A DNA stretch of 64,000 bases from a virus (IMGVR_UViG_2925939204_000001), one strand, 5' to 3'. Shown: positions 3,065 to 30,663, counted from the stretch's first letter. Numbers and translations are program-made. The notes: generated by a model not told the origin, from the letters alone.

Positions 3065-3456
3065 TGTACGGGACTACCAAATTAAGCACTCAACAGGCCA
3101 CCAATATGGAGTGGTCTATCGCTAACTGTAAGATCGTGTCATGCAATGCCACGCGTACTGATGTGGGCCATAAAAGCACTATAACAGGCTATCTAGTAAT
3201 GACCACCAGGGGGATGAGGGTTAGATTTCGCTGGAAAGCAGAGCAAGTAACGCCATTCAGAGAGCCATCAATGCCGCTGCAGGTTGAGCAGGATTATCTA
3301 TGTTTACCAGAAATAGATGGAGGAATGCTGGTGGAGTCTGATGGTAGTAAGGCTGATTTTGAAGCCAATTTGAAGCTGGCACAGGCCGTAATCAATAGTT
3401 ATCGCGGAAAGTGGATCGCAAAAGTGAAACATGTTGTTCGTTTGTCTCGCTGGTAG
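3064..3456 (+). CDS. hypothetical protein (130 aa)
   Basis: ORF start overlaps upstream stop (TGATG). Confidence 0.5.
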   Translation: MYGTTKLSTQQATNMEWSIANCKIVSCNATRTDVGHKSTITGYLVMTTRGMRVRFRWKAEQVTPFREPSMPLQVEQDYLCLPEIDGGMLVESDGSKADFEANLKLAQAVINSYRGKWIAKVKHVVRLSRW

Positions 3457-3474
3457 CGTTAGGTATTTAATATT

Positions 3475-3490
3475 AATTTTCTAATATAAT
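3475..3490. promoter_or_regulatory. operator-like site (weak copy, TTTTCTAATAT)
   Basis: Variant of the recurring TTTTCTAACA motif, upstream of the 3565 gene. Confidence 0.3.
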
Positions 3491-3564: not shown

Positions 3565-3957
3565 ATGGAACAAATCAGCAGCGCAGAAATTGCGGATATC
3601 ATGATCAGGGCTGACTGCTATCTGACAGTCACTGAAATTACCACTCTCGCCAAAGAAAAATACCCTCATCTCCATGTTTCACGAGTAAGTGTAACTAACA
3701 TCATTCGTCATTTTGTTCGTTCAAGCAGGGCAATCTGTGAGCTGGATGATCGTGTGTATCCACGAAAATACTGGCTACATGGTCTAAACGGATATCAGTT
3801 CAAGGTGCGCGGGCGCACGCCTGAATACGGTAGCTTACTGGTTAAAAACTGTAGCAGGAAATCAGTCGAACAGGCGCGAAAAGAGCAACGAGAGCTGGTG
3901 GACATGGCGAATAAGCTGTGGAATGCCGCCGTTAAAAAGCGTGGTGTTGCTTTATGA
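3565..3957 (+). CDS. putative HTH regulator immediately upstream of pacA (Lpa-like by position)
   Basis: 130-aa ORF with HTH-like segment LTVTEITTLAKEKY; position corresponds to the late-promoter activator gene of P1-type phages; preceded by an operator-like site. Confidence 0.4.
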   Translation: MEQISSAEIADIMIRADCYLTVTEITTLAKEKYPHLHVSRVSVTNIIRHFVRSSRAICELDDRVYPRKYWLHGLNGYQFKVRGRTPEYGSLLVKNCSRKSVEQARKEQRELVDMANKLWNAAVKKRGVAL

Positions 3958-5318
3958 GTCTGGTTAATTGGGAGGAGCACCGCGCCCGCTTTATAGCGTT
4001 GCGTGAAGAAAAAGGGATCACTGTAAAGGAATACTGTGAGGAGCATGGCCTTAGCTTCAATACAGCCAGAAAGCATCTCAATATGAAAAAAAATGAGGTG
4101 CGGTCGCAGGTAAAGACAACAAAAAAAAGCACCAAATCACCTGAAAAAAAACGGGCGGGAAGAGCAACAAAAAAGCTGGAAGAGGGTGCAGAAAAAACAA
4201 AATTTACAGAAATTGACAATTCGCAGGGCGCAGGTTCTTTCCGAAGTATGCCGAGAAAGAAAACTTCGGATCATGAAAATAATGCGAATAATAACAATGA
4301 GATAAAAGAATCTGTCAGGAGATCATTGCGCGAAAAAATGGCGAAAATGATCCCCGAAGAAGATAAAAGCGCCCCAAAAATTGAGGGATCTTCTGCAATG
4401 ATCCCCGACGGTGCTGTGCAGCGTGCCACATTGCCCACTACGAATGTGGCTCGCGATATGATGAAGAACGGCGCAGAAGAACACCTGCGGTTAGCAATTC
4501 AAATGGCGCAAGAGCGCGCACTTCAGTATCAAAGCATTGTTGATCAGGAGGCCGAACGTCTACAGGCGGAAATAGACGCCTTGGGCGATAAAGAGCCAGA
4601 AGGAATGCACCCTGGGCAGCGCCTTCTCGGTCTAATCAGTGGCGCGGCCTACTACATGAATGATTTTATCAGTAGGTTGGCAGCTATATATCAGTCCGAA
4701 CAAAAGCTGCGACAGGGGGATGAAAAGCTTCGTCAGAGCGCTCGCCAGCAAGCATTCAAAGAGGCTGAGGCCAGAGAAAAACTCGAATTAGCACGCCTAC
4801 AGGCCGAACAGCGTGGCAAAGAGATTGAATATCGCATTGGCGCTGACGCACGCGCAGCCAGAGTTATCGCCGCCGCTATACGTATGCGTGAGCGCGAGGA
4901 ACTGGATGATATCGGTGTTGCTGAATACATCGAGCGCCAGGGTGTCAGCGTCCCGGCTATCCTCGCGGCGCGCGCGGCGAAAGCTATCACTCTTCTCGAA
5001 CCACCTGTTTCTGACGTCAATGATGTTGATGATGAACAGCTGGACAAAGAGGCAAGGGAGTTTGCAACGCTTCAGGCTAACCATCCGCAATGGCTGGCAG
5101 AGCGCCGGGCGGATGTGGCAACCATTGTTGAAGAATTGGGGTGCGGAGATTACGACCGCAATGGCGAGCGTAAAGCTGGAGAATTCGAGGCCAACGACGA
5201 AGAGCTGGATATTGACCCTTCGGCAACGGCTGAAATTTACGGTGATTATGATGTATCTGATGCAGGGTATGACGCCGGAGATGATGATATCGCGATAGAA
5301 CCGCCGGAGGATGATTAA
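3954..5318 (+). CDS. pacA: terminase small subunit PacA-like
   Basis: 454-aa ORF, N-terminus MSLVNWEEHRARFIALREEKGITVKEYCEEHGL (HTH-like), coupled to the large subunit; GATC-rich cluster inside 5' part. Confidence 0.7.
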   Translation: MSLVNWEEHRARFIALREEKGITVKEYCEEHGLSFNTARKHLNMKKNEVRSQVKTTKKSTKSPEKKRAGRATKKLEEGAEKTKFTEIDNSQGAGSFRSMPRKKTSDHENNANNNNEIKESVRRSLREKMAKMIPEEDKSAPKIEGSSAMIPDGAVQRATLPTTNVARDMMKNGAEEHLRLAIQMAQERALQYQSIVDQEAERLQAEIDALGDKEPEGMHPGQRLLGLISGAAYYMNDFISRLAAIYQSEQKLRQGDEKLRQSARQQAFKEAEAREKLELARLQAEQRGKEIEYRIGADARAARVIAAAIRMREREELDDIGVAEYIERQGVSVPAILAARAAKAITLLEPPVSDVNDVDDEQLDKEAREFATLQANHPQWLAERRADVATIVEELGCGDYDRNGERKAGEFEANDEELDIDPSATAEIYGDYDVSDAGYDAGDDDIAIEPPEDD

Positions 5319-6826
5319 TGGCTGGCGGGCGCAAGATTAAATGCGTCACCAGCGATCCACGCTGGCGCGATATGGTAATCAAATACCGCTACAACTTTAC
5401 CCAGGCTGTTGTCGATATTTTTGGGATGTTCCCCTCCCACCAGCAGCAGCAGATCATTCAGTCAGTGCAGGAAACGGGGAGTAGGACTACCGTCACGTCC
5501 GGACACGGAACGGGGAAGTCGTCCCTTACCGCGATGTTGCTGTTGATTTTTATGATCCTGTTCCCCGATGCCCGTGTCATCATTGTTGCTAACAAGATAG
5601 GCCAGGTAAAAACAGGCGTATTCAAATACGTTAAACAGTATTGGGCGAATGCAGTTAAGCGTCATGGGTGGTTGCAGACCTATTTTGTCCTCTCTGACAC
5701 CATGTTTTATGAGCGCTCCCGTAAGGGGATTTGGGAAGTTCTCTGCAAAGGTTATCGACTCGGCAACGAAGAAGCGCTGGCGGGGGAACACGCGGCACAT
5801 TTGCTTCTAATTCTGGATGAAGCATCTGGTATATCTGATAAGGCGATCGGCGTAATGACCGGTGCTCTTACTGAAGAAGATAACCGGATGTTGATGCTAT
5901 CCCAGCCAACAAGGCCAAGTGGTTATTTCTACGATTCGCACCATTCTCGAGCAAAAACCCCAGACAACCCGAAAGGGATCTGGACAGCAATTGTTCTTAA
6001 CTCGGAAGAATCACCGTTCGTCACACCACAATTCATCAAGCAGAAGCTTCTGGAATATGGCGGGCGCGATTCTATTGAGTACATGGTCAAGGTGCTTGGT
6101 CAGTTCCCACGAGAAATTAACGGCTATTTGCTTGGTCGTGATGAATGCGATCGCGCTGCTCGCCGCAAGGTGTTGTTGGAGAAAAACTGGGGATGGGTGG
6201 CAACGGCTGACGTTGGTAATGGGCGAGATAAGTCGGTCCTCAACATCTGCAAGGTATCTGGTCACAGGGATAAGCGGCGCGTTGTTAACTTTAAGGTAAT
6301 GGAGATGCCTGGCACTATGGACCCATTGGCCTTTGCTGACTTCATATATAACGAATGTACGCCGGAAAAATACCCGAATATAACAATCGCGGTTGATGCT
6401 GATGGTTTTGGTTCTGATACGTGTGCGCAGTTGGTGCGTCGTGGTGCGAACCCGGTACGTATTCGGTGGGGAAAACCCATGTTTGCGAACAAAGACAGGG
6501 AGCGATTTGTTAATCAGCGTGCCTACGCAAATATTATGGCGCGTGATGCCATAAAGTCAGGGCGTATGCGGATAGACAGTGACCCTAAAACGGCAGAGCA
6601 AGCGTCAAAAATCCCCTTTTTACTGAATGAAGAGGGGAAAATGGCGATGATGCGCAAAGAGCACATGCGGCAAAAGCTAAACATCAAATCGCCTGACCGA
6701 TGGGATACCTACTGCTTCACTATGCTGGTGGACTATGTGCCTGCTAATGAAGATATTGGTGCCGAAATGGCAACTTTCCGAGATCAGGTTCTGGCGGATA
6801 TCGAAATGCCGGCTCTGGATATATAA
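5318..6826 (+). CDS. pacB: terminase large subunit PacB-like (ATPase/nuclease)
   Basis: Walker A SGHGTGKS and Walker B LLLILDEAS motifs; 502 aa; overlaps pacA stop. Confidence 0.85.
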   Translation: MAGGRKIKCVTSDPRWRDMVIKYRYNFTQAVVDIFGMFPSHQQQQIIQSVQETGSRTTVTSGHGTGKSSLTAMLLLIFMILFPDARVIIVANKIGQVKTGVFKYVKQYWANAVKRHGWLQTYFVLSDTMFYERSRKGIWEVLCKGYRLGNEEALAGEHAAHLLLILDEASGISDKAIGVMTGALTEEDNRMLMLSQPTRPSGYFYDSHHSRAKTPDNPKGIWTAIVLNSEESPFVTPQFIKQKLLEYGGRDSIEYMVKVLGQFPREINGYLLGRDECDRAARRKVLLEKNWGWVATADVGNGRDKSVLNICKVSGHRDKRRVVNFKVMEMPGTMDPLAFADFIYNECTPEKYPNITIAVDADGFGSDTCAQLVRRGANPVRIRWGKPMFANKDRERFVNQRAYANIMARDAIKSGRMRIDSDPKTAEQASKIPFLLNEEGKMAMMRKEHMRQKLNIKSPDRWDTYCFTMLVDYVPANEDIGAEMATFRDQVLADIEMPALDI

Positions 6827-6853: not shown

Positions 6854-7891
6854 TTACCAGAGCTTCGCGGCGTACTGCGTTTGGGGGAATGTGTATCCGT
6901 AACGTTCTTCGATTGCTTTGCCGTATTTTTTACGAGCTTCATTCAGTTTAATGCCGGTCAGGTCGTCTCCAGAGGCCATCATTACGTCTAACAATTCCAG
7001 ATCCATTTTATCCAGCCTTGCCATTGCTTCACGTGATGTACGTATCTTACGCTCAATGATATGGCGAATAGCCGGATCGGCATCCTCCAGCATCTTAGCG
7101 GATTTCTGCTTAAGGCTTTCATTGCGAATATCGATGTTCCTTAAGATGTACGACTTCGCAACATAGCTTGGCTGGTGTTTTTCCAGGTCACGAACACGAT
7201 ATAAGTTAAAATCGCCGAGAAGGCTGCAAGGTACCGATTCGACGCCAGAATAAATTGTAATGCTCCGGCGTTCACCAACATTATTGACAACGGGGATCGT
7301 TGTCTTCGGTAGTCTTGCGAAAACCAATGCACCATGTGCGCCAACTCTAAAGCGAGAAAGGGCATTGCTGCCTTCGATGTTTGTTGTCAGCACAACATCT
7401 GTATATGCCTCTTTACGCGCCCGGTAGATCTCGCCTTCAGGCTCAGCTTCAAAGAAGCGCTGTTCTTCTTCAAGAGCACCTACGATTTGAGAAAAAACCC
7501 TATTTTTCAGGCTTTTCTTTATGATTTTGTCGTATTTTTTGAGCAATTGTTCACGTGTAAATGTACGTGTTGTTGTAGCGCTTTGCACAACAACATGCGT
7601 GCTTTGATTGGTGTCCTCAATGATGAATGGGATCGGAGAATATACAGACTCAACAATGTTCGACGCTTTGCCGTCGGCATCGCGACACATGTCAACGAAG
7701 GCTTTCCATTCAGCAAGACATTTTTCAGCTTCTTCTAATATGTTTTGGTCATGCGTTAATGCAACATGGCGGAATTCCTCGCCAGCATAACTGGTATCAT
7801 GGAAAACAGAGTTTGCGACCACCAGCTCTTTCCACCGTTCAGCGGTTTGCAGGAACCGTTTGTACTCTTTCTCGATCGACTTCTTACTCAT
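6854..7891 (-). CDS. hypothetical 345-aa protein in the position occupied by the c1 repressor gene in P1
   Basis: Complete ORF convergent with pacB, divergent from rox-dre; operator-like motif just upstream of its start; sequence itself not recognised. Confidence 0.5.
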   Translation of the reverse strand: MSKKSIEKEYKRFLQTAERWKELVVANSVFHDTSYAGEEFRHVALTHDQNILEEAEKCLAEWKAFVDMCRDADGKASNIVESVYSPIPFIIEDTNQSTHVVVQSATTTRTFTREQLLKKYDKIIKKSLKNRVFSQIVGALEEEQRFFEAEPEGEIYRARKEAYTDVVLTTNIEGSNALSRFRVGAHGALVFARLPKTTIPVVNNVGERRSITIYSGVESVPCSLLGDFNLYRVRDLEKHQPSYVAKSYILRNIDIRNESLKQKSAKMLEDADPAIRHIIERKIRTSREAMARLDKMDLELLDVMMASGDDLTGIKLNEARKKYGKAIEERYGYTFPQTQYAAKLW

Positions 7892-7906
7892 TATTCCTAC
7901 TCGATT

Positions 7907-7920
7907 TAGTTTTCTAACAT
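7907..7920. promoter_or_regulatory. operator-like site TAGTTTTCTAACAT
   Basis: Copy of the recurring motif, 16 bp upstream of the 6854..7891 start codon. Confidence 0.4.
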
Positions 7921-8101
7921 AAAATTACTATGACAAATTTATGTCGAATAACAGAGTGAGTAAAGGATAGAACTGTGATTTTTTGTCATCAATTTTAGAA
8001 AACCAACTGTATAAACCACACTTCGCAAATTAAAGACCATGAAGGCAACGTGTTACTGGTCAGAATCAATCTGTGATGGATTAAAAAAAATCGCCATTTT
8101 A

Positions 8102-8133
8102 TAACTTTAAATAATTGGCATTATTTAAAGTTA
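8102..8133. other. rox site-specific recombination target (Dre target)
   Basis: 14-bp inverted repeats TAACTTTAAATAAT / ATTATTTAAAGTTA around a 4-bp spacer TGGC; matches the published rox sequence in reverse orientation. Confidence 0.85.
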
Positions 8134-8285
8134 GGCTATAATCATGGGTGGATGATCAGTGTTGACATCACTGAAAATACGTGCCTCGAATCAAAGGTTT
8201 GAATCTTGAAAATTAACTTATAGCTACCCTGTCATTTTTATATTTTTCGCGTAGCGTCATCTGTATATAGAGGTTAAATAGTTTC

Positions 8286-9314
8286 ATGAGTGAATTAATT
8301 ATCTCTGGCAGCTCCAGTGGTTTTCTGCGCAACATTGGCAAAGAGTACCAGGAGGCCGCAGAAAACTTTATGCGGTTCATGAATGACCAGGGGGCTTATG
8401 CGCCGAATACTCTGCGCGACCTCCGGTTGGTGTTTCATTCCTGGGCGCGCTGGTGTCACGCTCGCCAGCTTGCCTGGTTTCCGATCTCACCAGAAATGGC
8501 CCGCGAGTATTTTCTTCAGTTGCATGATGCCGATCTGGCTTCGACCACCATTGATAAGCACTATGCCATGCTTAACATGCTGCTTTCGCAATGTGGCCTC
8601 CCGCCGCTGTCGGACGATAAAAGTGTGTCTCTGGCCATGCGGCGCATCCGGCGCGAAGCGGCAACTGAAAAAGGCGAACGAACAGGCCAGGCTATACCGC
8701 TGCGGTGGGACGATCTGAAACTGCTCGACGTCCTGTTGTCCAGGTCAGAACGGCTGGTGGACCTGCGCAACCGGGCTTTTCTCTTTGTTGCATACAATAC
8801 CCTGTTGCGTATGGCTGAAATGTCCCGCGTGCGTGTTCGCGATCTGGAACAGACTGGTGACACTGTCACGCTACATATTTCACACACGAAGACAATAACG
8901 ACCGCCGCCGGGCTTGATAAGGTGCTTTCCCGTCGCACTACCGCTGTGCTGAATGACTGGCTGGATGTTTCCGGGCTTCGCGAACATCCTGACGCAGTGC
9001 TGTTCCCGCCGATACACCGTAGCAATAAGGCCAGGATCACGACAACGCCCCTTACTGCACCTGCAATGGAGAAAATATTCAGCGACGCCTGGGTGTTGCT
9101 GAATAAAAGAGATGCTACGCCAAACAAAGGAAGATACCGGACGTGGACCGGGCATAGTGCACGCGTCGGGGCCGCTATTGATATGGCTGAAAAGCAGGTG
9201 TCTATGGTGGAGATCATGCAGGAAGGAACCTGGAAGAAACCGGAAACACTTATGCGGTATCTTCGCCGTGGCGGCGTGTCTGTGGGGGCTAATAGCCGCC
9301 TGATGGATTCGTAA
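8286..9314 (+). CDS. dre: Dre tyrosine site-specific recombinase (Cre homologue)
   Basis: 342 aa, N-terminus MSELIISGSS...; Cre-family catalytic region with GHSARVGAA; adjacent rox site. Confidence 0.9.
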   Translation: MSELIISGSSSGFLRNIGKEYQEAAENFMRFMNDQGAYAPNTLRDLRLVFHSWARWCHARQLAWFPISPEMAREYFLQLHDADLASTTIDKHYAMLNMLLSQCGLPPLSDDKSVSLAMRRIRREAATEKGERTGQAIPLRWDDLKLLDVLLSRSERLVDLRNRAFLFVAYNTLLRMAEMSRVRVRDLEQTGDTVTLHISHTKTITTAAGLDKVLSRRTTAVLNDWLDVSGLREHPDAVLFPPIHRSNKARITTTPLTAPAMEKIFSDAWVLLNKRDATPNKGRYRTWTGHSARVGAAIDMAEKQVSMVEIMQEGTWKKPETLMRYLRRGGVSVGANSRLMDS

Positions 9315-9317
9315 ATT

Positions 9318-9331
9318 AAATTTCTAACACA
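9318..9331. promoter_or_regulatory. operator-like site AAATTTCTAACACA
   Basis: Copy of the recurring motif between dre and the next ORF. Confidence 0.4.
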
Positions 9332-12952: not shown

Positions 12953-13342
12953 TTAAATCACCGGACAATCATCAAATTCCCCACTTCGGGCATCATTGAT
13001 GGCATGAGTGATCACACCAAAAACAGCATTACTGCCCGTGTATCCATCGTCATCTACTGGTAACGCCTCTTTCTTCCCGGTGCTTAAGTCCTCCAGGTGC
13101 TGGCGCGGATACTTCCTGTATCTCTTTATGCGATATTCACCCTCCATAGCGCACACAAGCAGAGAACCATCAACCGGAGTAAGCGAGGAATCAACCACCA
13201 GCAAAGCACCCTGCAATATTCCCTCACGGTGATGGCTGTCTGCCGCCCGCATGAAGTAGGTCGCTGATGGATGCCTGATTAGTTGCTGATCAAGAGAAAT
13301 TCGGCTTTCAACATAATCCGCCGCAGGAGAAGGGAAGCCCAT
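12953..13342 (-). CDS. humD: HumD, UmuD'-like translesion synthesis accessory protein
   Basis: GFPSPAADYVE.RI.L.Q.LI.HPSATYF matches the UmuD core; lacks the UmuD N-terminal extension. Confidence 0.88.
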   Translation of the reverse strand: MGFPSPAADYVESRISLDQQLIRHPSATYFMRAADSHHREGILQGALLVVDSSLTPVDGSLLVCAMEGEYRIKRYRKYPRQHLEDLSTGKKEALPVDDDGYTGSNAVFGVITHAINDARSGEFDDCPVI

Positions 13343-13362: not shown

Positions 13363-13378
13363 CTGTTTATTCATACAG
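13363..13378. promoter_or_regulatory. LexA box (SOS operator) upstream of humD
   Basis: CTGT-ttattcat-ACAG matches CTGT-N8-ACAG; 21 nt upstream of the humD start codon. Confidence 0.6.
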
Positions 13379-13379: not shown

Positions 13380-15300
13380 GTGCGCCGGGAGACCGGTAGA
13401 GATCAAGGGGTGAAAGTCCCCGACCATTGAAGGACCAGCAATCCACAAGGTCCCCGAGTCATGCGTTGCATACCGCGAGGTATGGGGCGAAGCGTTGACA
13501 GGGGTGTTGACAGGCCAGCCATTGAGCCACGAAATGTATATTAAATTACCGGGTGCCGACGTTGTACTGTTAACGGAAGGCAACATCATAGGGTGCGATA
13601 CTGCGAGTGCCACATGGACCCGGCGGGGTCTGAGACCCTGGCATGTCAATACGATCTCTACGCGGGAACCGGGAGATCTCCCCTCTGACCATCTGCCAGT
13701 GTCGGAGATGGCCCGCACCGGGAAGACGAGGAGTCATAGCCGGTGATGTACGGAGAGGAGAAGTCGGACTCGCTCATAGTAGCGGCGAAGCAGGCGAACA
13801 ACCCGAAAGGAGCGGAGTCAGTGGAGCGAAGGAGCGGGGCCAAGGGGAACGCGGAACAGCCACACATGCGCCGGACACAGAGCCGGGAAAGCATGTCACA
13901 GAGGCTGTCACGCGTGCGGGAAGCTGCGAAGCAGCAGAAGAAAGAACGGTTTACAGCATTGTTCCACCTGCTGACAGTCGAAGCACTGGAAGCCGCATTC
14001 CTCTCCCTGAGCAGGAAAGCGGCCGCGGGAGTGGATGGCATCAGGTGGATGGACTACGCCGGAAACATGAAGAACAACATAACAGATCTGCACCGGAGGC
14101 TACATCAGGGCAGCTACAGGGCGCAGCCCGGCAGGCGTCACTACATCCCAAAAGCGGATGGAAAACAACGCCCGCTCGGCATCGCCTCGCTGGAGGACAA
14201 GATCGTCCAGTATGCGCTGGTGAAAATCCTGAACGCAGTCTATGAAAACGACTTTATGGGGTTCTCATACGGGTTCAGACCCGGGCGAAACCAGCACGAT
14301 GCACTGGACGCACTGGCCACAGGGCTGGTACGCACTAACGTAAACTGGGTACTGGATGCCGACATCAGTCAGTTCTTCGACAGGGTGAGCCACGAATGGC
14401 TGATCAGGTTCACAGAGCATCGGATCGGCGACCGGAGGGTAATCAGGCTCATACGTAAGTGGCTCACAGCCGGGACGTCGGAGGAGGGTCAATGGCGAGC
14501 AACGGAGGAAGGCACCCCACAGGGTGCGGTCATCTCACCGCTGCTGGCAAACATATACCTCCACTACGTCTTCGATCTGTGGGCGCATCAGTGGCGACGT
14601 CGCTATGCCACAGGCAATGTGGTAATGGTCAGATACGCCGATGACATCGTCATCGGGTTCGACAAACGATACGATGCCCGGCGCTTCCGTATAGCCATGC
14701 AGCGCAGACTGAGGGAGTTCGGACTCACGGTTCACCCGGAGAAAACCCGTCTGATGGAGTTCGGCCGCTTCGCTGCCGAAAACCGTGCCATCAGGGGAAA
14801 AGGCAAACCAGAAACGTTCAACTTCCTCGGGTTCACGCACATCAGCGGGAAAGATCGCAACGGCAGGTTCATGCTGATACGAAAGACCCGCCGGGATCGG
14901 ATGACGGCAACTCTGAAAGCCATCAAAGACGGTCTGCGAAGGCGCTGGCATTACTCAATCCCCGAACAGGGAAAATGGCTCAGGAGAGTGGTTCAGGGAT
15001 ACCTGAACTATCACTCGGTACCGGGCAACTTCCCCACCATGCAGAAGTTCAGGACACACGTAACAAACCTCTGGCGCCGGGCGCTCAGGCGCAGGAGCCA
15101 GAAGGATGATACGACCTGGACGAAAGCAAACAAACTGGCAGCCGCATGGCTACCAAGGGTTCGGGTTCTTCATCCATGGCCTGTGGAGCGGTTCACCGCC
15201 AGACACCCGAGGCAGGAGCCCGGTGCGTAAATCGCGCACGCCGGGATCTGTGCGGGGGGTATCCGGTAACGGGTATCCCTACCGCGACATACATTGAAAA
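13380..15300 (+). mobile_element. group II intron (bacterial, ORF in domain IV); 3' boundary approximate
   Basis: 5' end GTGCGCC; internal RT/maturase ORF; 34-nt domain V-like hairpin with GUAA tetraloop and 2-nt bulge at 15252-15285 after the ORF. Confidence 0.7.
13743..15230 (+). CDS. group II intron-encoded reverse transcriptase/maturase
   Basis: RT motifs including GTPQGAVISPLLANIYL and YADD; C-terminal maturase region; no Cys-rich HNH endonuclease domain visible. Confidence 0.9.
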   Translation: MMYGEEKSDSLIVAAKQANNPKGAESVERRSGAKGNAEQPHMRRTQSRESMSQRLSRVREAAKQQKKERFTALFHLLTVEALEAAFLSLSRKAAAGVDGIRWMDYAGNMKNNITDLHRRLHQGSYRAQPGRRHYIPKADGKQRPLGIASLEDKIVQYALVKILNAVYENDFMGFSYGFRPGRNQHDALDALATGLVRTNVNWVLDADISQFFDRVSHEWLIRFTEHRIGDRRVIRLIRKWLTAGTSEEGQWRATEEGTPQGAVISPLLANIYLHYVFDLWAHQWRRRYATGNVVMVRYADDIVIGFDKRYDARRFRIAMQRRLREFGLTVHPEKTRLMEFGRFAAENRAIRGKGKPETFNFLGFTHISGKDRNGRFMLIRKTRRDRMTATLKAIKDGLRRRWHYSIPEQGKWLRRVVQGYLNYHSVPGNFPTMQKFRTHVTNLWRRALRRRSQKDDTTWTKANKLAAAWLPRVRVLHPWPVERFTARHPRQEPGA

Positions 15301-16650: not shown

Positions 16651-17579
16651 ACTTCACCCTCGCTTGTATCGCCAGCATCCACCAGCGGCAATAAAGCCCT
16701 GGCCATCTTATGAACCAATAGTGCATCAATAATGCCAAGCGTATGCCCCGGCTTAATGTTTAATGCCGCCTCAAGGTGACACCTTTCCAGGCCACTTTTC
16801 TCGGCTTGTTTATGATGATCTGGTGTAATAACGTCGCCCAAAACACGGCTAATTCTTTCTCGTAATTGCTGGGTGCCAGCACACTTGATCGCTGTATCGT
16901 GGAGACGGTTAACCAGTTCGCGATAAACATGCGGCTTAATTCGGATACGTTCACCGGTGACGCCCTTTCCTGGTGCTGGCACCGAACTATCCGGAATATC
17001 CGGATAGTTGCCAGCCTCGTAAGCTACCCGCAGCCAGTGCATGAATGTTTCAGTGGACACACAACCACAGTCCACATCGATTTTCCCGCGTTGCTGTTCC
17101 AGCCATTGCCCAAAATCCAACCTGTAAGTCTTACTTTCAAGTTCATCACCATTGAACTCGACTTTCTGCGACGCTATGAGAGCTGATTCGTATTGTTCGC
17201 GAGTGACAACTGACTGGTATTCATCGCTATCAAGGTCACCAATTGGAAGCTCAATCTCACAACAAAAATTGCGCCCAAAGAAAGTGTCTTTTTTGTGGTC
17301 TGAGCCAAAAGCAAAAGTCGCGCATGGTGCCATTAAATTGACACTGGGTAGGTAACAATAACTCATTCCATCAGGCCACCCGCCGCACTTAGGCAGTTCC
17401 TTCACTAACAAGTCGATAAACTTCATTTTTTTATCATCTTTGCAAGCCGCCAAAGCCATTTGGGCAAGTGCCAATACTTCATCTGCCGTATATCCAGCAC
17501 CGTGACCATACATTTCGATACGGGAAATAATCTCTGATATGCGCTCTTCAGTGATTCTGGTCATTTCTTTTTGCGCCAT
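16647..17579 (-). CDS. hypothetical protein (310 aa); segment PHVYRELVNRLHD...QQLRERISRVLG resembles the C-terminus of 28390..29001
   Basis: Complete ORF, translationally coupled; internal paralogous segment. Confidence 0.55.
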   Translation of the reverse strand: MAQKEMTRITEERISEIISRIEMYGHGAGYTADEVLALAQMALAACKDDKKMKFIDLLVKELPKCGGWPDGMSYCYLPSVNLMAPCATFAFGSDHKKDTFFGRNFCCEIELPIGDLDSDEYQSVVTREQYESALIASQKVEFNGDELESKTYRLDFGQWLEQQRGKIDVDCGCVSTETFMHWLRVAYEAGNYPDIPDSSVPAPGKGVTGERIRIKPHVYRELVNRLHDTAIKCAGTQQLRERISRVLGDVITPDHHKQAEKSGLERCHLEAALNIKPGHTLGIIDALLVHKMARALLPLVDAGDTSEGEV

Positions 17580-17935
17580 TTCTTTTCACATTCCTTAGTC
17601 CATTCTTCAATGTTCATTTTGGCAATATCAGTCATTCCATCACCTAAGAAATACTTTTTCCGGTATGTCTTGCACTTAAACCACACTACAACAGCCACCA
17701 GCCAGAAAATAAAAGGCCATACAGCAATACCAACGACAGCCGCGATAAAGCCCAATAGCCATAAATGAAGCTCTCCAACTTCTGTTTCCGGCAATATTCT
17801 TAAAGAATTAAACAGCAGGATGAACGAATGGTCGTATGCATTGGCAGTATAAGACATGCAATCCATATAATTAAAGTCATAGCCTGCGGCTGCCGCCCAT
17901 AATGGGCGGTCAAGAAAATGTTTTAGTGTCATCAT
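17561..17935 (-). CDS. small membrane protein (124 aa)
   Basis: Two hydrophobic helices (LWLLGFIAAVVGIAVWPFIFWLVAVVVWF). Confidence 0.5.
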   Translation of the reverse strand: MMTLKHFLDRPLWAAAAGYDFNYMDCMSYTANAYDHSFILLFNSLRILPETEVGELHLWLLGFIAAVVGIAVWPFIFWLVAVVVWFKCKTYRKKYFLGDGMTDIAKMNIEEWTKECEKKWRKKK

Positions 17936-17941
17936 ATAAAT

Positions 17942-18331
17942 TTAAGGTTCAGACCAGTTATCTTCAATAGCAATGCTTAATCTTTGTAGCCATTCTGCTA
18001 ATTTCAGCATTGCTTCTCTTTCGCTTAAACCACGAGGAAAATCATCAAGCGAAATTGTTGGCTTGAAGCCCCCGTAATTATCCATTTCAACAGTCAGATT
18101 TTGCTCCAGCACGGTATTCCTTACGCGGCTATTGTGCCGAAGCAAATATACTGAACGTGATTTATTGGTTTTATGGTCAAACTGATATTCGGTAAGTATC
18201 ATCTGGCTTTTGCCATGACTATTACCTCTCCACATACTTACCTCACTTAATAAAACAACTCCATGCGTAGTTGATGATTTTTTCCCACGTAATATAAATC
18301 TGCACTCCGGCAGTAAAACCAAAGCCAACAA
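17942..18331 (-). CDS. hypothetical protein (129 aa)
   Basis: Complete ORF in operon. Confidence 0.5.
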   Translation of the reverse strand: MLALVLLPECRFILRGKKSSTTHGVVLLSEVSMWRGNSHGKSQMILTEYQFDHKTNKSRSVYLLRHNSRVRNTVLEQNLTVEMDNYGGFKPTISLDDFPRGLSEREAMLKLAEWLQRLSIAIEDNWSEP

Positions 18332-18413
18332 TTGCTGAAAAAATCAAAACATTTACTTTTGACATTATAAATTTTCTCTCGGCGTCGTAGGTGATAGCAC
18401 CATAATTGATAAT

Positions 18414-18647
18414 TTAGTGAGTTAGCAGCTCCATTTTTTGGATGATTTCCGCATGAGCATCATCGTTATCAACACTTAACTCGTTTAATGCCTCTCGCAC
18501 TACATCAACTTCTTCTGGTTGGAAGAAGTCATCTCGGTAGTCACCAAATAGAACCGAAACAAGCCTGCCACCAGCAACATCAAGATTGGCGCTAACAGGT
18601 GGCTCTTTGCCATCCTCAAATTCGACTACAAAAGTTAATTTTCCCAT
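18414..18647 (-). CDS. hypothetical acidic protein (77 aa)
   Basis: Complete ORF in operon. Confidence 0.45.
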   Translation of the reverse strand: MGKLTFVVEFEDGKEPPVSANLDVAGGRLVSVLFGDYRDDFFQPEEVDVVREALNELSVDNDDAHAEIIQKMELLTH

Positions 18648-18723
18648 CGTTACCCCCAGAAGATAAAAATAGCGGCAATCGCCATAGCTACGCCTACAAT
18701 CGCAAATGCTTCAGGCCAGCTTA

Positions 18724-18984
18724 TTACCTCACCTCCAGTCTCCATACCGCCTGACCAATCCGGCTGGCATGGGTATCTTTGGATACTGTTCCATCTTTAG
18801 CCATCTCCATAAGAATTTTGCGCAAATCTGCCGAACGCCATTCTTCATCAGGAAATTCCTTCTCCATTGCCAACCGCAGATTCCAGGTTGCCATCCTGAA
18901 TGGATATTTCCCGCCGAGAGCTTTATCTTGCAGGGCAGCCCGGGAACGCATCACCTGCAAAACCTTCTCTTTTACATCCATCAT
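18724..18984 (-). CDS. hypothetical protein (86 aa)
   Basis: Complete ORF; start overlaps upstream stop. Confidence 0.45.
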   Translation of the reverse strand: MMDVKEKVLQVMRSRAALQDKALGGKYPFRMATWNLRLAMEKEFPDEEWRSADLRKILMEMAKDGTVSKDTHASRIGQAVWRLEVR

Positions 18985-19856
18985 TTCGCCTCCTGCGGCG
19001 GTTCTGGTAGAGGCATCCAGTGGGTTACACCGCCAATTGGCTCATCGTCGTCGTACTCCAATGCGGCTATATAGAACCCGTCACGACGAGAATAAGAAAT
19101 CCCGGACATTACAATGCCATCCGAAACAACAATAATGTCACCCGTTTCTTTCGGCATTCGCTCACTACAGCTTATCCAACCATCCGGAGTTACCGGAGAG
19201 TTGCCCGATAGTGCATTCTGCTCCAGTGATGCTTTTACAAACCACGCTGCCTGAACTATAACGCCATGAATCCAGCGCAAATCAGCATCGCGATCTTTCT
19301 TTTTCATCTTTTCGCCACTTAAGGCCTTGCTTATGTGGCTGCGTACCAGGTCTTCATGTAATTCCTTCGCCTCCTCAATGGTGAAACCACCAGGCAGAAG
19401 AGCCGGAGTTACCGGAGAGCTGGTTGACGCTTCCGGGATTTCCCGAAAATTATTGGTTGACGAATCTTTATTTTCCCGAAAGTTTCCGGACTGAAGCATG
19501 GCTTCGCGGCAATCGTTCCAGCCTGTAGCGTATGCAGCCGCTTTGCTGCTGCCTTCAACTGGCGCATCCTGCCAATACATTTCTTCCGGCACTATCGGCG
19601 CTGGAGGGGCGGCAAATAGATATCCGCCAAAGTCAGGAAGCTCTCTAATGGCCTGTACGAATTTTTGTTTGCCTACGTCAACTCCTAATGGGTAATGAGC
19701 TATAATCTTTGCCACCGGCTCTGCTGCCAGTGATGCCAGAGCAATTCGTGCCAGTTCTTCCGCTTCTTCTGCTGGCAGTACAACGTTGCTACCCGGTCCG
19801 TATGTTTCGCGCCACTGCTTGATTGTCAGTAGTCGATCTTTGGCAATAGTGGTCAT
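18981..19856 (-). CDS. hypothetical protein with DUF551-like C-terminus (291 aa)
   Basis: C-terminal ...WISCSERMPKE...HWMPLPEPP pattern; N-terminal region similar to the N-terminus of 21139..21591. Confidence 0.5.
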   Translation of the reverse strand: MTTIAKDRLLTIKQWRETYGPGSNVVLPAEEAEELARIALASLAAEPVAKIIAHYPLGVDVGKQKFVQAIRELPDFGGYLFAAPPAPIVPEEMYWQDAPVEGSSKAAAYATGWNDCREAMLQSGNFRENKDSSTNNFREIPEASTSSPVTPALLPGGFTIEEAKELHEDLVRSHISKALSGEKMKKKDRDADLRWIHGVIVQAAWFVKASLEQNALSGNSPVTPDGWISCSERMPKETGDIIVVSDGIVMSGISYSRRDGFYIAALEYDDDEPIGGVTHWMPLPEPPQEAK

Positions 19857-20368
19857 GCCGCGTTTCCTTCTTTCTTATTAACAATTACACCGTCATATAT
19901 TTCATTAAGGTGCCCTCTCAACTCCATACGCCTTAATGCAGATAACATGTAATCGCATTCAACCTGCTTATTTCCAGTAAATGGCTTATCGTCAGGATTA
20001 CCCCAACAGCAATTACCCTTGGGCCACCCATGTACTTTCCGTACTCTTCCGTTAACAACGTGAAGTAATCCCCAGCCAGGTGGTAAATCCTCAATTGAAA
20101 TAATTCCCGGCTCACTAATAAAGAATCGCCAGTCGCCCATTCCAAGAGACGGATTTTTACGAAAACGCTTTTTTCTATCTGCCAACAAGTCAGCACGAGA
20201 ACATTTCGCCTCTATCAGGCATGATGCTGAATTTCTGAATCCCATAGCATCTGGCTGTTCTCCGGTACTGGTTACAGCTATAAAGCGGTCATGAAAACAA
20301 ACCTTGAACCCGTTGCGCTTAAGGAACTTGTACGCAATCTGACAGAGTTCGCGGTGTGTTAACGCCAT
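19853..20368 (-). CDS. putative PD-(D/E)xK-type nuclease-like protein
   Basis: Segment TGEQPDAMGF...SCLIEAKCS fits a PD...(D/E)xK core; start taken at internal Met after the overlapping upstream ORF. Confidence 0.45.
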   Translation of the reverse strand: MALTHRELCQIAYKFLKRNGFKVCFHDRFIAVTSTGEQPDAMGFRNSASCLIEAKCSRADLLADRKKRFRKNPSLGMGDWRFFISEPGIISIEDLPPGWGLLHVVNGRVRKVHGWPKGNCCWGNPDDKPFTGNKQVECDYMLSALRRMELRGHLNEIYDGVIVNKKEGNAA

Positions 20369-20369
20369 A

Positions 20370-20558
20370 TCACTCTCCTTTAGTGCGCAAGTGGTTTTTC
20401 CAGCGGTTTTGCGCCGCGCTGGGCTTTTTGCAAAAACCACAATCCATCATCCCGTAATATTTCATCAACCCCATCCGTCGGTTGCTGAGTCTCACCCACT
20501 GCCAGACGCCAGGAGCGTTTCTACGAACTAACAGAATCTTTGCTTTACGGTTTTTCAT
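20370..20558 (-). CDS. small basic protein (62 aa, MKNRKAK...)
   Basis: Complete ORF; a second MKNRKAK-initiated short ORF lies at about 20570-20740 on the same strand. Confidence 0.35.
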   Translation of the reverse strand: MKNRKAKILLVRRNAPGVWQWVRLSNRRMGLMKYYGMMDCGFCKKPSAAQNRWKNHLRTKGE

Positions 20559-20891
20559 CTTACAGCGTACCCTTTCTTCCGCCTGTTCTGTGACGCAGTA
20601 GGCTTACGCTTTGCGGCAAAAGCCACCTGACCAAATGGATGGAGTACCGCTATCTTATGGTTGCTAATAACCAGCTCCACCACACGCACAGGTCGCTGTA
20701 AAAAAAGTCGTTTTGCCTTACGGTTTTTCATCGCTTTGCTCTCCTGCGTTTCTTTGCTGCACGCCGAGCCGCCGCGATACCAGTACGACGCTTTGATGCA
20801 GGAATACCGGTTCCATCAGAAAAGACATGCGACTTTATGAGTGATGTTGACGCCCAAAGGCGAATTGGGTGTGGAAGCAAGCCGAAGAACA

Positions 20892-21137
20892 CTATCTGCA
20901 TTTCACACCACCATTTGTATTCGGTGAGCTATTTACTTCTTTCGCGTTAGCTTTGCGCTCAGCTTCACGAATGGTATAAGCAATGTCATTTAGCATTATG
21001 ACCGACGCGAGGATGTTGCTATGCAGTTGTTCTTCAACGCGGTGCAGCACCACTATTAAATCAGGATGCTCTCTTTCAAACTTTGCACGCTCAATCTGCC
21101 ACAGATTGGCAGCTTCTAACGTTTTATTAGTCGCCAT
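20892..21137 (-). CDS. hypothetical protein (about 81 aa)
   Basis: ORF in operon; start set at internal Met (MATNKTLEAANLW). Confidence 0.4.
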   Translation of the reverse strand: MATNKTLEAANLWQIERAKFEREHPDLIVVLHRVEEQLHSNILASVIMLNDIAYTIREAERKANAKEVNSSPNTNGGVKCR

Positions 21138-21138
21138 A

Positions 21139-21591
21139 TTATTCTCCTTTTTCTTTAAGCATGGCCGCGCGGCAGGCATTCCACCCCTTCACATAACCGA
21201 ACGCCATCAACTGATCACTCATGGCGGGCAGCATTGTGTGGGTCGTACTGATTTCTTCCGGCACTACCGGCGCTGGCGGGGCGATGCGTCCAAGCAACTT
21301 ATTTACCTCTTTCGCCATCGCGTCATATTTATCTAAATGGCGATTAGCTTCTAAGCAGACTCGGCGCATCTGATCTGAGTTAACTCGTTTAACTGGATCT
21401 GCTTCCAGCGATGCCAGCGCCAACTTGAACGCCTGAAGCTCAATGGCACTGTTGGTATCCAGTCCAAACGGTAATTCATCACGATTGGCTTCGTATTCAG
21501 CGATAGTTTGCTTCAGCCATTCTTTGGTTAGTTCAGCCATATCCCTAATTCCCCTTGATGCTGACTTTGACGCCAACCTTGCGAATCTCAT
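21139..21591 (-). CDS. hypothetical protein (150 aa)
   Basis: Complete ORF in operon. Confidence 0.5.
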   Translation of the reverse strand: MRFARLASKSASRGIRDMAELTKEWLKQTIAEYEANRDELPFGLDTNSAIELQAFKLALASLEADPVKRVNSDQMRRVCLEANRHLDKYDAMAKEVNKLLGRIAPPAPVVPEEISTTHTMLPAMSDQLMAFGYVKGWNACRAAMLKEKGE

Positions 21592-22204
21592 CGGCGCATC
21601 TGTTCACGATACTCCGGTGAAACTCACAAAAAATTTTCGCCGACTGCGGCCCTAATGGGTGAACATCGTGCGCACGCGGCAGTACAACCTCCCGTGCTTC
21701 CAGTTCTGCTATGCGATTCTCTGCGGATTCCAGCTTCTCGCGCATATCGTCAACGTACTCGACCAGAGATCCGCCAGCAGGAATTTCGCACTCCTCGACC
21801 AGTTGGAAGTAGATATCAGCTGCGGCCCGTGTGTTGCTATGCCTAGCGTCGCCCATCTCACCTTCACGAAGAGCATCGCGTTCGGCGGTAAGATTGGCTA
21901 TTTTGCTGTCTTTGCCTTCCAGCTCAACGCGCAGCTTCCCTACCGTTAGCGCAATATCCTCGTTCTCCTGGTCGCGGCATTTTATGTATTGCTGGTTTCT
22001 TTCCCATTCATCCAGTAGTGCCAGCACGGTTTCTGGTCCGGTCAGAAATTTGAAGGCGTTGAGCGCATCAATATCCACACCGTAATCCTTAAGTTCCTGT
22101 TCAGTTAACAAATCATCATCAGCTGGCAACATTAACAGGCGTTCCATTGCTGGAATTGCACGTTCCGCCACCTCACGCAGTGCCTGGTAATTAATTTCGC
22201 TCAC
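21545..22204 (-). CDS. hypothetical protein, paralogue family A ([26 protein letters not shown]...)
   Basis: 219 aa; N-terminal ~90 aa near-identical to 27107..27592. Confidence 0.55.
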   Translation of the reverse strand: MSEINYQALREVAERAIPAMERLLMLPADDDLLTEQELKDYGVDIDALNAFKFLTGPETVLALLDEWERNQQYIKCRDQENEDIALTVGKLRVELEGKDSKIANLTAERDALREGEMGDARHSNTRAAADIYFQLVEECEIPAGGSLVEYVDDMREKLESAENRIAELEAREVVLPRAHDVHPLGPQSAKIFCEFHRSIVNRCADEIRKVGVKVSIKGN

Positions 22205-22613
22205 TGGATGACTCCTTTACGAAGCTGTTCAGCGATATCTTCGAGAACGCCATCAGAGAATGAGCGGTCAAAATCTCCTTCCGGCGCATTAGCCATAAAC
22301 TCAGTAGAGGTAAGAATCATCCTGGCAATATCCGCGGCGTTCTTCGCAGTATCATCAATAAAACCAGCTACCCAGGCAGCCAGCATTCTGTTCGCCACAA
22401 AGTAGGCGCCTTCCTTGCGTGCTTCAGTCTTCACTTCAGCCAGGAAAGCGTCGGTGGCTGACATATTTCCTGTTGCCTTCATGGCCTTCAAAATAACCAG
22501 AACGCCATCTTGCCCTACCAACTCGGAGATAATCTCAGTGTTGTCGCCAACAACCTCACAGAATGCCTGAACAGCTTTACGAGCAAGTGCATTCTCCGCC
22601 GCCAGCGCCGCGC
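21916..22613. repeat. ~700-bp direct repeat, copy 1 (partner at 27304..28002)
   Basis: Long near-identical runs visible by eye, e.g. CTGGATGACTCCTTTACGAAGCTGTTCAGCGATATCTTCGAGAACGCC at 22204 and 27592. Confidence 0.8.
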
Positions 22614-22860
22614 ACTTGGCCTCAAGAGCGGCAACCACTTCCTGATGGTCTTTGTACTTAACGTATGAGCCGGAGATGTCATCACCTTCGGTGTTTAGCC
22701 ATGCGTCATTGCAATTCACTGCGTAGGTTCTGATGCTCATGCTGATGCTCTCCCGCCCCTGACAGACGCCAGGCCAGTCAATAAAGTATCCGCAATGCCT
22801 ACCCTCAGACGTGCGCGCAGGATAAATGCCGTTATGACCGGCAAAATATATGCTACCCAT
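22201..22860 (-). CDS. hypothetical protein, paralogue family B
   Basis: 219 aa; C-terminal ~115 aa near-identical to 27589..28086. Confidence 0.55.
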   Translation of the reverse strand: MGSIYFAGHNGIYPARTSEGRHCGYFIDWPGVCQGRESISMSIRTYAVNCNDAWLNTEGDDISGSYVKYKDHQEVVAALEAKCAALAAENALARKAVQAFCEVVGDNTEIISELVGQDGVLVILKAMKATGNMSATDAFLAEVKTEARKEGAYFVANRMLAAWVAGFIDDTAKNAADIARMILTSTEFMANAPEGDFDRSFSDGVLEDIAEQLRKGVIQ

Positions 22861-22905
22861 TCATCTTGCGTTGCCTGGTCCGCCGCCTCGCGCAGTTCTT
22901 GATAG

Positions 22906-23502
22906 TTAATTTTGCTCACTGGTTGCCCCCTGAATACGCTTAAACTCGATTACCCATACCCACGGGTTAGATAGCCAGTTATCCTGCCCGTAAATACTGC
23001 GCCAGATATCACCAAAACCAACGCGATAAACAGCTTCAGGTGGCGTAATCTTGTACGTCGCCGGAGTTGCGCCTTCTGCTTTAGCATCTGCCTCGCTCAT
23101 GTCACGCAGCCGTTCCACACGCACGTCGGTAATTTCCAGAAGAATGCGCGATGCCCAGCGCGGCATGTGAATTGATGGCGTCCACTTTTCTGATACTGGT
23201 TTATTACAAACATCGACCGGAACCCGGTGCGTTTGTTCTGTCCAGGAGTTACGCACGCTTGCGCGATAAACCAGCGTTGCGACGTCCGTCGCTTTGCCAT
23301 GTACCCGGTAGGTTTCGCGAACCCAAATACGATCGCCCGGTTGACCATATGGACAATGCTTGGCAAACAACTCTGCGGCAACTGCTCGTCCATAGAATTT
23401 TTCTTCAACAATCCTGCGAGTCTGTGTTTTATTCCCGCCAAGAATTGCCCGGACCATCTCATCGTTAAAAATCATCCCGCGTTCTTTCATTTTTTGATCC
23501 AC
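22906..23502 (-). CDS. hypothetical protein (198 aa)
   Basis: Complete ORF in operon. Confidence 0.5.
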   Translation of the reverse strand: MDQKMKERGMIFNDEMVRAILGGNKTQTRRIVEEKFYGRAVAAELFAKHCPYGQPGDRIWVRETYRVHGKATDVATLVYRASVRNSWTEQTHRVPVDVCNKPVSEKWTPSIHMPRWASRILLEITDVRVERLRDMSEADAKAEGATPATYKITPPEAVYRVGFGDIWRSIYGQDNWLSNPWVWVIEFKRIQGATSEQN

Positions 23503-23506
23503 TCCA

Positions 23507-24542: not shown

Positions 24543-24576
24543 TATGTTAGAAAACTAAAATCAATGTTCTAACACG
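24543..24576. promoter_or_regulatory. paired operator-like sites (TATGTTAGAAAACTAAAAT and TGTTCTAACAC)
   Basis: Two copies of the recurring motif in opposite orientation, upstream of the 23507..24502 gene. Confidence 0.4.
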
Positions 24577-29193: not shown

Positions 29194-29230
29194 TGTGTTA
29201 GAAAATCAATTTTGAATATCTAACAGTTTT
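29194..29230. promoter_or_regulatory. paired operator-like sites in the divergent promoter region between the pmg operon and ref
   Basis: TGTGTTAGAAAATCAAT and ATATCTAACAG copies of the recurring motif. Confidence 0.4.
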
Positions 29231-29273: not shown

Positions 29274-29852
29274 ATGCAGAAACAGAGCTATTGGGAGAAA
29301 CAGAGACAAAAAGCCATGCAAAAATTGGCTGACTCAGCCTGGCGAGAGGAACAAAGGGCAAAGCGCCTTCAACAAGCTCAACGCCAGCAGCAGCGAGCGA
29401 GAGAAAAAGCCGCATCGCCTGAATATCGGCAAAAGAAAATTGAAAAAGCAAAGCAATATGAACAGCGGAGAAAAGATAAAGCTGTATCCGCTCCGTCCAA
29501 AAAAACACGCACGTCACGCGGCCTGAAAGGCAGATCACTCACAGCCGATGAACGCCGGATACAGACCGCTATCGGTGCTCTCCCCTGCATTGCCTGCCAT
29601 ATTCACGGGCAACATAGCCCAGTGGTATCCCTGCACCATATCTTCGGGAGAACGGCAGAGAACGCGCATAAATATGTCCTCCCTTTGTGTAAATGGCACC
29701 ACCAGTACGCAGCGCCAGCCGAGGTCAGAGAACAATATCCCTGGCTGGTCCCTGTTCATGCTGACGGAAAAATAGGCGGAAAAGCAGATTTCATGCGGCA
29801 CAATGCCGATGAAATGACGTTGTATCAGATGGCGATTGAGTTGATAAATTAG
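29274..29852 (+). CDS. ref: Ref-like HNH endonuclease (recombination enhancement function)
   Basis: Lys/Arg/Gln-rich N-terminal ~80 aa then Cys/His-rich HNH-like core CIACHIHGQHSPVVSLHHIF...CKWHH; architecture matches P1 Ref. Confidence 0.6.
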   Translation: MQKQSYWEKQRQKAMQKLADSAWREEQRAKRLQQAQRQQQRAREKAASPEYRQKKIEKAKQYEQRRKDKAVSAPSKKTRTSRGLKGRSLTADERRIQTAIGALPCIACHIHGQHSPVVSLHHIFGRTAENAHKYVLPLCKWHHQYAAPAEVREQYPWLVPVHADGKIGGKADFMRHNADEMTLYQMAIELIN

Positions 29853-30478: not shown

Positions 30479-30479
30479 G

Positions 30480-30640: not shown

Positions 30641-30663
30641 ATTAGCAAAAGGAGGCTGCCATT

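Follow-up and report, generated by a model that had tools for sequence, protein, structure and literature searches.

The 345-residue protein encoded at positions 6854-7891 (minus strand) of a 64,000-nucleotide stretch of viral DNA, hereafter the window, is very probably the C1 master repressor of a D6-like plasmid prophage of the P1 family, through which the element would be repressed and rendered immune. Sequence relationship, genomic position, predicted fold and a putative operator regulon all favour the divergent C1-type immunity repressor that an earlier note on this DNA had offered as one of two possibilities, and point to a repressor function. The identification is already known and, for annotation, brings nothing new; the proper label for the gene is C1-family prophage repressor. 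What may go beyond the existing annotation is a map of the operators and regulon of D6, the change of operator that accompanies a highly divergent C1, and the prediction of a Tus-like fold.

The c1 gene and its genomic setting

The open reading frame proposed for this segment is real. It begins with an ATG directly preceded by an AGGA ribosome-binding site, which is kept in relatives, and its product is 100% identical to AAV84948 (AY753669) and to D6_1 (ASR76322; MF356679), as revealed by megablast and by tblastn against phage records. The first of these is labelled [quoted passage not shown] and the second "prophage repressor, similar to P1 gene C1". The gene had been described as unrecognised, a view that does not hold: GenBank annotation of the identical protein as c1 or prophage repressor dates from 2004, and the literature on D6-like plasmids calls it a C1 homologue (PMC6799933). 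In that work, D6-like plasmids of Salmonella were reported to contain an immC-like region with a homologue of the C1 master repressor, as well as two c4/icd regions, and Lxc was undetected (PMC6799933). The literature searched contained no experimental paper on D6 C1.

By the same megablast and tblastn comparisons, the c1 neighbourhood corresponds to immC of Escherichia phage D6. Taken in full, the window is not D6 itself but represents a mosaic D6-like element, with blocks of 93-99% identity and several segments replaced or inserted. The c1 gene shows no difference from that of D6, and its flanks (pacB, rox and dre) are identical in kind. Phage D6 is said to have been described by Sauer and McDermott in 2004 and by Gilcrease and Casjens in 2018. 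Among the plasmids of PLSDB, 148 bear this c1 gene; the protein is found at 95% identity or above in about 77 plasmids, and the gene is intact, at 68-100% identity, in about 130 from Escherichia, Salmonella and Shigella. Remoter versions of C1, with 24-30% identity, occur in PLSDB plasmids of Leclercia, Citrobacter, Pantoea and Xenorhabdus. The gene, the parts of its product and the surrounding features are as follows.

3954-5318: terminase small-subunit gene (terminase small-subunit PHROGs)
5318-6826 (plus strand): pacB, terminase large subunit (terminase large-subunit PHROGs); left neighbour, converging on c1
6845-6827 (minus strand): intrinsic-terminator-like G+C-rich hairpin and T-run between the converging c1 and pacB
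6854-7891 (minus strand): c1, ATG start, 345 aa; very probable D6-type C1 repressor
Residues 1 to ~240 of the c1 protein: conserved C1 core, predicted to be Tus-like
Residues ~241-345 of the c1 protein: C-terminal domain, helical, confined to a long subclass
8102-8133: rox site, so labelled in AY753669, with the structure of a perfect 14-4-14 inverted repeat; target of the Dre recombinase and boundary of the immC-like region
8286-9314 (plus strand): dre, tyrosine recombinase homologous to Cre (Phage_integrase domain); right neighbour

The location of the gene between pacB and rox-dre, given in the earlier note, was confirmed, both neighbours being as named according to PHROGs, the 14-4-14 repeat and the Phage_integrase domain. 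As expected of the P1 C1-type family, c1 lies between pacB and the recombinase site and is transcribed towards pacB, the terminator-like hairpin and T-run occupying the 27-bp gap between c1 and the pacB stop. The pacA-pacB, c1, rox-dre layout is the same as in P1, with c1 in the same slot and orientation.

In P1 immC, coi, which encodes the C1 inactivator, and imcB/imcA lie directly upstream of c1 and are co-transcribed with it, whereas all are absent from the D6-type region. This absence, likewise noted earlier, was borne out: the 210-bp spacer between c1 and rox contains no coi-sized ORF, the only one present encoding 33 aa (7939-8040, minus strand), and tblastn searches of the window and of the complete D6 genome with Coi, ImcA and ImcB returned no match better than E 1.8. 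The 33-aa ORF was rejected as an imc analogue; part of it falls in DNA that relatives do not conserve. Searches for Lxc, the Bof corepressor, gave E values of 0.8 or worse (tblastn, window and complete D6 genome), and orf13 of D6, which occupies the position of P1 lxc downstream of ulx, displays no similarity to Lxc. The C-terminal domain of D6 C1 was tested, and rejected, as a fused Coi or Lxc and as a paralogue of another protein of the element. SOS induction of P1 is thought to be exerted via LexA, which has a site in the promoter of coi (PMC4713147). The sole LexA-type box (CTGT-N8-ACAG) in the 64 kb adjoins a umuD-like gene, and LexA control taking the place of the LexA-regulated coi was rejected, this one box not being near c1 or immI.

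Relationship to the C1 repressor of P1

Pairwise BLASTP alignment of the 345-residue protein with P1 C1 (NC_005856) revealed 21% identity over 240 aa (E 2e-8). Both proteins match phrog_1678 end to end (2.8e-170 for the D6-type protein and 2.6e-140 for P1 C1) and have PF27008 as their precomputed Pfam label. The 345-residue protein remained without a match in the local Pfam-A copy because PF27008 is newer than that copy. The NCBIfam model NF041318 ("phage_rep_C1") matches residues 7-240 (E 8.9e-6) with 25.4 bits, a score that falls short of the equivalog cut-off of 500 bits, which stands for the same function and specificity as P1 C1, while P1 C1 scores 607. Judged from sequence comparison, the D6 protein truly belongs to the C1 family, as a remote member and not as an equivalog of P1 C1.

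These results bear on several earlier statements. The earlier note could assign the protein to no family, whereas PHROG 1678, PF27008 and NF041318 all tie it to P1 C1. Homology to a non-regulatory enzyme family and a separate c1 elsewhere had been named there as findings that would refute the interpretation. No enzyme family was matched in Pfam or NCBIfam, and no second c1 is present in the window or the complete D6 genome, where tblastn with P1 C1 returned this gene as the sole match (E 6e-6). A repressor of the lambda cI or LexA-like kind (HTH_3/XRE plus S24) was considered and rejected, there being no such Pfam or NCBIfam domain and the modelled fold being different.

A D6-type profile searched against 1.84 billion representatives identified 83 proteins that form two length classes. 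Members of the long class (~345-380 aa) match the profile end to end, while in those of the short class (~250-290 aa) the match is restricted to profile positions 5 to ~245. The short class includes P0082, which is 53% identical to P1 C1, and a phmmer search restricted to the core also recovers P1-type proteins. A joint alignment revealed 15 columns invariant across both classes (Y10, F13, D32, G37, R41, P86, P88, I90, L140, R157, R159, V183, G187, Y214 and C222). The final 105 residues are confined to the long subclass, which comprises 24 of the 111 collected proteins. D6 C1, with 345 aa, is 62 aa longer than P1 C1 (283 aa), and it ends in a structured helical C-terminal domain, in contrast with the disordered basic tail of P1 C1.

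Operator motif and candidate regulon

The P1 operator consensus, ATTGCTCTAATAAATTT, is asymmetric (PMC8546580). This sequence, the recognition of which characterises P1/P7 immunity specificity, is missing from the 64 kb even when up to 3 mismatches are allowed. The window displays another asymmetric motif, the 15-mer ATGTTAGAAAACTAA, at 7 sites with 2 mismatches or fewer (0.12 expected). There are 15 half-sites at 13 bits or above, compared with 1.2 in shuffles, and 5 loci present inverted half-site pairs 2 bp apart (0.01 expected). The D6 motif consensus is (A/G)TGTTAGAAAA(C/T)TAA, and it is found singly or in inverted pairs. The complete D6 genome contains about 21 half-sites, some of them near repL and the other immI module. 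This resembles P1, for which 22 operators are reported (PMC8546580) and in which asymmetric operators are similarly dispersed, single or in inverted overlapping pairs. The sites in the window are listed below.

3456-3487: predicted bivalent operator, 78 nt upstream of lpa (3565)
7920-7906 (minus strand): proximal c1 half-site, ATGTTAGAAAACTAA, 14 nt upstream of the c1 ATG
7992-8006 (plus strand): distal c1 half-site, ATTTTAGAAAACCAA, inverted, 71 nt from the proximal site, between c1 and rox
9316-9330 (minus strand): half-site just past the dre stop, preceding the operon that comes next (9388 onward)
24544-24575: predicted bivalent operator upstream of a pdcB-like DUF968 gene (24502-23507, minus strand)
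29195-29226: predicted bivalent operator upstream of ref (29274-29852, plus strand), in an intergenic region common to ref and a divergent operon
29849-29863 (minus strand): half-site where ref ends, ~660 bp before the first C4 RNA module
41310-41341: predicted bivalent operator immediately upstream of hrdC/rdgC (41354-42259, plus strand), the first gene of the hrdC-methylase operon
50968-50999: predicted bivalent operator upstream of the second immI-like module
52976-52990 (plus strand): half-site 15 nt upstream of a 134-aa ORF (52961-52557, minus strand), between this ORF and the capsid gene

The operator-like motif that the earlier note had placed upstream of the c1 start thus exists and, with 7 sites against 0.12, is far in excess of expectation, but it lies 14 nt and not 16 bp from the ATG. 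Dispersed asymmetric sites, single or inverted, in front of c1, lpa and ref are the arrangement known from P1, whose record (NC_005856) has C1 operators annotated before lpa and c1 and in which ref, dmt and kilA are under C1 control (PMC4713147). Likewise, D6 C1 would have c1, lpa and ref among its targets, to which the immI modules and the dmt-containing operon can probably be added. The predicted lpa operator stands at the relative place of P1 Olpa and contains a perfect TATAAT (3485-3490). Structural (late) operons are devoid of the motif except for one site in the spacer beside the capsid gene. A late-promoter element is an unlikely reading of the motif; the -22 box of P1 LPpac differs, and the sites are at early genes.

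Comparison with relatives revealed how the motif varies with the protein. Where C1 is 81% and 70% identical, the proximal c1 site is almost unchanged and forms a conserved island, and the core of the distal site, TTTTCTAA, is conserved, while much of the remaining c1-rox spacer has diverged. A Leclercia plasmid with a C1 of 30% identity has, in place of the D6 motif, the sequence A(C/T)(C/A)NTAATTCTAA(G/C), which is located at matching places: before c1, flanking the recombinase gene on both sides, before ref and before rdgC. The operator layouts of P1 (ATTGC-TCTAA-TAAATTT), D6 (TTAGTTT-TCTAA-CAT) and Leclercia (NTAAT-TCTAA-G) have a TCTAA core in common, which is the only part of the P1 consensus to recur in the D6 sequence. 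As a feature shared by the three operator types, this core is suggestive. A description of the D6 operator may be in print already.

Two of the motif sites (29849-29863 and 50968-50999) accompany immI-like modules, each of which comprises, as in P1, a C4 RNA, an icd-sized ORF and an antirepressor gene.

30522-30609: C4 RNA of the first immI-like module
30664-30879: first icd, an icd-sized ORF after the C4 RNA
30879-31820: Rha-type antirepressor (Phage_pRha) of the first module
51054-51106: c4 targets of the second immI-like module
51175-51260: C4 RNA of the second module
51308-51523: second icd, an icd-sized ORF
51523-52521: ORF6N-type antirepressor of the second module

The two antirepressors, Rha-type and ORF6N-type, belong to different families and, unlike those of P1, are not of the Ant1/2 type.

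Predicted fold, alternative readings and mode of action

Neither the protein nor the family profile retrieved anything meaningful from PDB sequences, and no solved structure of a C1 relative was identified in this way. An AlphaFold2 model of D6 C1, built from a shallow alignment of 19 sequences (mean pLDDT 84.9), displays an alpha+beta core at residues 1 to ~232 with two long beta-hairpins (strands 99-112 and 155-171), followed by a long helical hairpin (233-270 and 276-307) and three short helices (316-342). Foldseek, as an independent method, revealed four matches at E of 0.001 or below, all of them Tus-Ter complexes (E 3.6e-8 to 2e-6, probability 1.00; next match E 0.086). The model of a P1-type C1, a protein 98% identical to P1 C1 (pLDDT 78.6), presents the same order of secondary-structure elements with a disordered tail at the end, and matches Tus alone (E 3.3e-9 to 1.1e-8; next 0.11). 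The comparison of predicted structures that the earlier note had recommended gives the same predicted fold for both proteins.

The Tus structures matched are those of E. coli Tus (PDB 1ECR and 4XR0-2), aligned over ~205-310 positions, with modest TM-scores (0.34-0.47) and high rmsd. A high rmsd would be expected if an apo two-domain model is set against a DNA-clamped crystal structure, and is also a reason for caution. Both C1 models, as predictions, display the two-domain alpha+beta architecture of Tus, which is the sole significant structural match for either. No sequence similarity is detectable: Tus was not found by the family-profile search of PDB sequences, and when the C1 family was aligned with E. 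coli Tus by hhalign the probability was 5%, which is not significant. By sequence, C1 does not belong to the Tus family. The functions also differ, Tus arresting replication forks and C1 repressing transcription. No paper linking C1 and Tus was found in the literature searched, the coverage of which was incomplete, and the link may have been made in other places, such as the Pfam entry PF27008.

Tus and P1 C1 are both monomers that bind asymmetric sites of ~17-23 bp, and the fold match would thus be mechanistically sensible. Tus was reportedly shown by Kamada et al. in 1996 to be a monomer that reads the asymmetric Ter site via interdomain beta-strands, and P1 C1 is said, after Eliason and Sternberg in 1987, to bind asymmetric 17-bp operators as a monomer. 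If the Tus fold holds, it would explain that C1 lacks a helix-turn-helix and acts as a monomer on asymmetric sites. It is an even question whether C1-type repressors of P1 and D6 are Tus-fold proteins in which one subunit clamps an asymmetric operator by interdomain beta-strands, keeping a TCTAA-type core and deriving specificity from the flanks, and whether the long subclass has swapped the Coi/Lxc layer for a C-terminal helical domain. The Tus-like fold, as modelled, appears to be the most interesting by-product of the analysis and would concern the whole C1 family and not this gene in particular.

Three other readings were weighed against a C1 repressor acting through the motif. The second possibility of the earlier note, an unrelated gene that has replaced the immC cassette while immunity is supplied elsewhere, might draw on the empty local Pfam-A result, the absence of coi and imcAB and the additional 62 aa of the protein. 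It is scarcely credible, and is rejected by the homology to P1 C1, since several independent searches and the shared PF27008 label tie the two proteins together, their predicted folds are alike and the complete D6 genome contains no other C1 homologue. It is very unlikely that the protein is a C1 homologue which has ceased to be the lysogeny repressor and serves as a site-specific DNA-binder for the control of replication forks or plasmid maintenance, with lysogeny ensured by another factor. Tus as the sole structural match, the absence of the P1 partners Coi and Lxc (for Lxc see also PMC6799933) and the fact that no functional study of D6 C1 was found in the literature searched are consistent with such a role. 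However, the motif sites lie beside the starts of c1 and of the kinds of gene that C1 targets in P1 (lpa, ref, immI and repL) and their arrangement is not one of polar barriers about a terminus; the P1 C1 model shares the Tus-like fold, yet P1 C1 is a proven repressor (PMC8546580); and the gene remains intact, at 68-100% identity, in the ~130 D6-like plasmids.

The remaining reading accepts the gene as a repressor and assigns the ATGTTAGAAAACTAA motif to another regulator, such as a late-promoter element, a host factor or a factor linked to Ant or Icd. The motif is indeed A+T-rich and located in A+T-rich intergenic DNA, it has the TCTAA core alone in common with the P1 operator, and binding by C1 is what we infer. 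This reading is nevertheless unlikely. The sites are positioned just upstream of lpa, c1 and ref, as are P1 C1 operators, and avoid the structural operons except for the one spacer site by the capsid gene, while the -22 element of P1 late promoters is different. Their asymmetry, their occurrence as single sites or inverted overlapping pairs and their number (~21 against 22 in P1; PMC8546580) also argue for C1, as does the covariation with the protein, the motif being unchanged where C1 is 70-81% identical and altered at matching positions where it is 30% identical.

Under the preferred reading, that of a C1 repressor acting through these sites, D6 C1 would grip each 15-mer via a Tus-like two-domain clamp, presumably as a monomer, and paired sites would accommodate two C1 molecules. 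Binding would occlude promoters, as suggested by the TATAAT inside the lpa operator, and would block those of lpa, ref, the hrdC-methylase, repL and immI operons and c1. Late-gene activation, lytic replication and antirepressor expression would thus be shut off and lysogeny kept, with c1 probably autoregulated through its two upstream sites. D6-type immunity would be distinct from that of P1, and the element should be heteroimmune to P1 because its operator differs from the P1 consensus. Since Coi, ImcAB and Lxc are missing, derepression is expected to occur via the two C4-RNA-controlled antirepressor modules, in which the Rha-type and ORF6N-type Ant proteins would be the agents of release. 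The ~105-aa helical C-terminal domain may provide a surface for antirepressor docking or for oligomerisation; as a guess, it is the most likely site, and this is the weakest step of the scheme.

Phage-plasmids of the D6 kind are frequent in E. coli and Salmonella, and the defined operator motif would allow their immunity type to be read from sequence. The predicted regulon map covers c1, lpa, ref, the hrdC-methylase operon, the two immI modules and repL. A Tus-like fold, if true, would suggest in structural terms how asymmetric operators are read by C1. With a C1 switch that operates without Coi, ImcAB and Lxc, D6-like elements would represent the P1 decision circuit in a naturally minimal form.

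The immI-like modules and the LexA-type box

The window contains two immI-like modules, in each of which a C4 antisense RNA is combined with an ORF of icd size and a gene for an antirepressor:
30399-31820, first immI-like module
51054-52521, second immI-like module

The two antirepressors are of distinct families, Phage_pRha in one module and ORF6N in the other. Phage D6 has other DNA at the place of the second module; the stretch 50931-51887 finds no counterpart there in D6, and 51887-52551 is similar to the antirepressor of the other D6 module. Directly upstream of the first C4 RNA, positions 30399-30477 match the Hfq-binding sRNA family isrK (62.5 bits, above the gathering score).

The humD/umuD-like gene (12953-13342, minus strand) has the sole LexA-type box of the window, CTGTTTATTCATACAG (13363-13378), on its upstream side. 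In P1 the coi promoter is reported to be LexA-controlled, whereas within the window no LexA-type box is found near c1 or the immI modules.

Segments absent from D6 and the tRNA cluster

Just past the umuD-like gene, a segment absent from D6 carries a group II intron together with a reverse-transcriptase ORF:
13413-13638, group II intron (Rfam D1-D4-6, 187 bits)
13743-15230, reverse-transcriptase ORF of 495 aa (RVT_1)

A segment of ~6.5 kb (17016-23504), also absent from D6, contains small early-region genes, among them those for DUF551 and Ead/Ea22-like proteins and several ORFs that have no Pfam match, and looks like typical mosaic cargo. The D6 annotation places three tRNAs in the area that corresponds to 549-2032, one of them flagged as odd by the annotators. 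The window contains a cluster of four tRNA genes there:
549-622, tRNA
631-714, tRNA
722-794, tRNA
1960-2032, tRNA

C1-type operators and candidate genes of the repressor circuit

Comparison of window 7880-8140 with relatives L007 and L009 revealed that the c1-proximal operator is almost unchanged where the C1 allele has 81% or 70% identity. Two further elements upstream of c1, apart from the operators, are invariant: the 11-bp block TCCTTTACTCA and a run of CAAAAAA, for which a promoter or another binding site are candidate roles. The Leclercia plasmid pE1_003 (loci L008 and L012), whose long-type C1 is 30% identical, displays a recurring motif of another sequence, A(C/T)(C/A)NTAATTCTAA(G/C), at positions corresponding to the D6 operators, namely before c1, ref and rdgC and on both flanks of the recombinase gene:
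L008:3536-3549, motif site
L008:4589-4602, motif site
L008:4923-4936, motif site
L012:3146-3159, motif site
L012:9557-9570, motif site

This motif shares the core TTCTAA with the D6 operator and TCTAA with the P1 operator.

Outside the window, D6 orf13 (L006:6550-6810, 86 aa) is found where P1 has lxc, with ulx and darB just upstream of it. Its product is of about the same length as Lxc (82 aa) and displays no similarity to it by BLASTP; orf13 could be unrelated to lxc or a positional analogue of this corepressor gene.

A 134-aa ORF (52557-52961, minus strand; D6 orf52) that has no Pfam match is preceded, 15 nt upstream of its start, by a near-perfect operator half-site of the C1 type (52976-52990). 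Because of this placement, the ORF is an uncharacterised gene that probably comes under C1 control.
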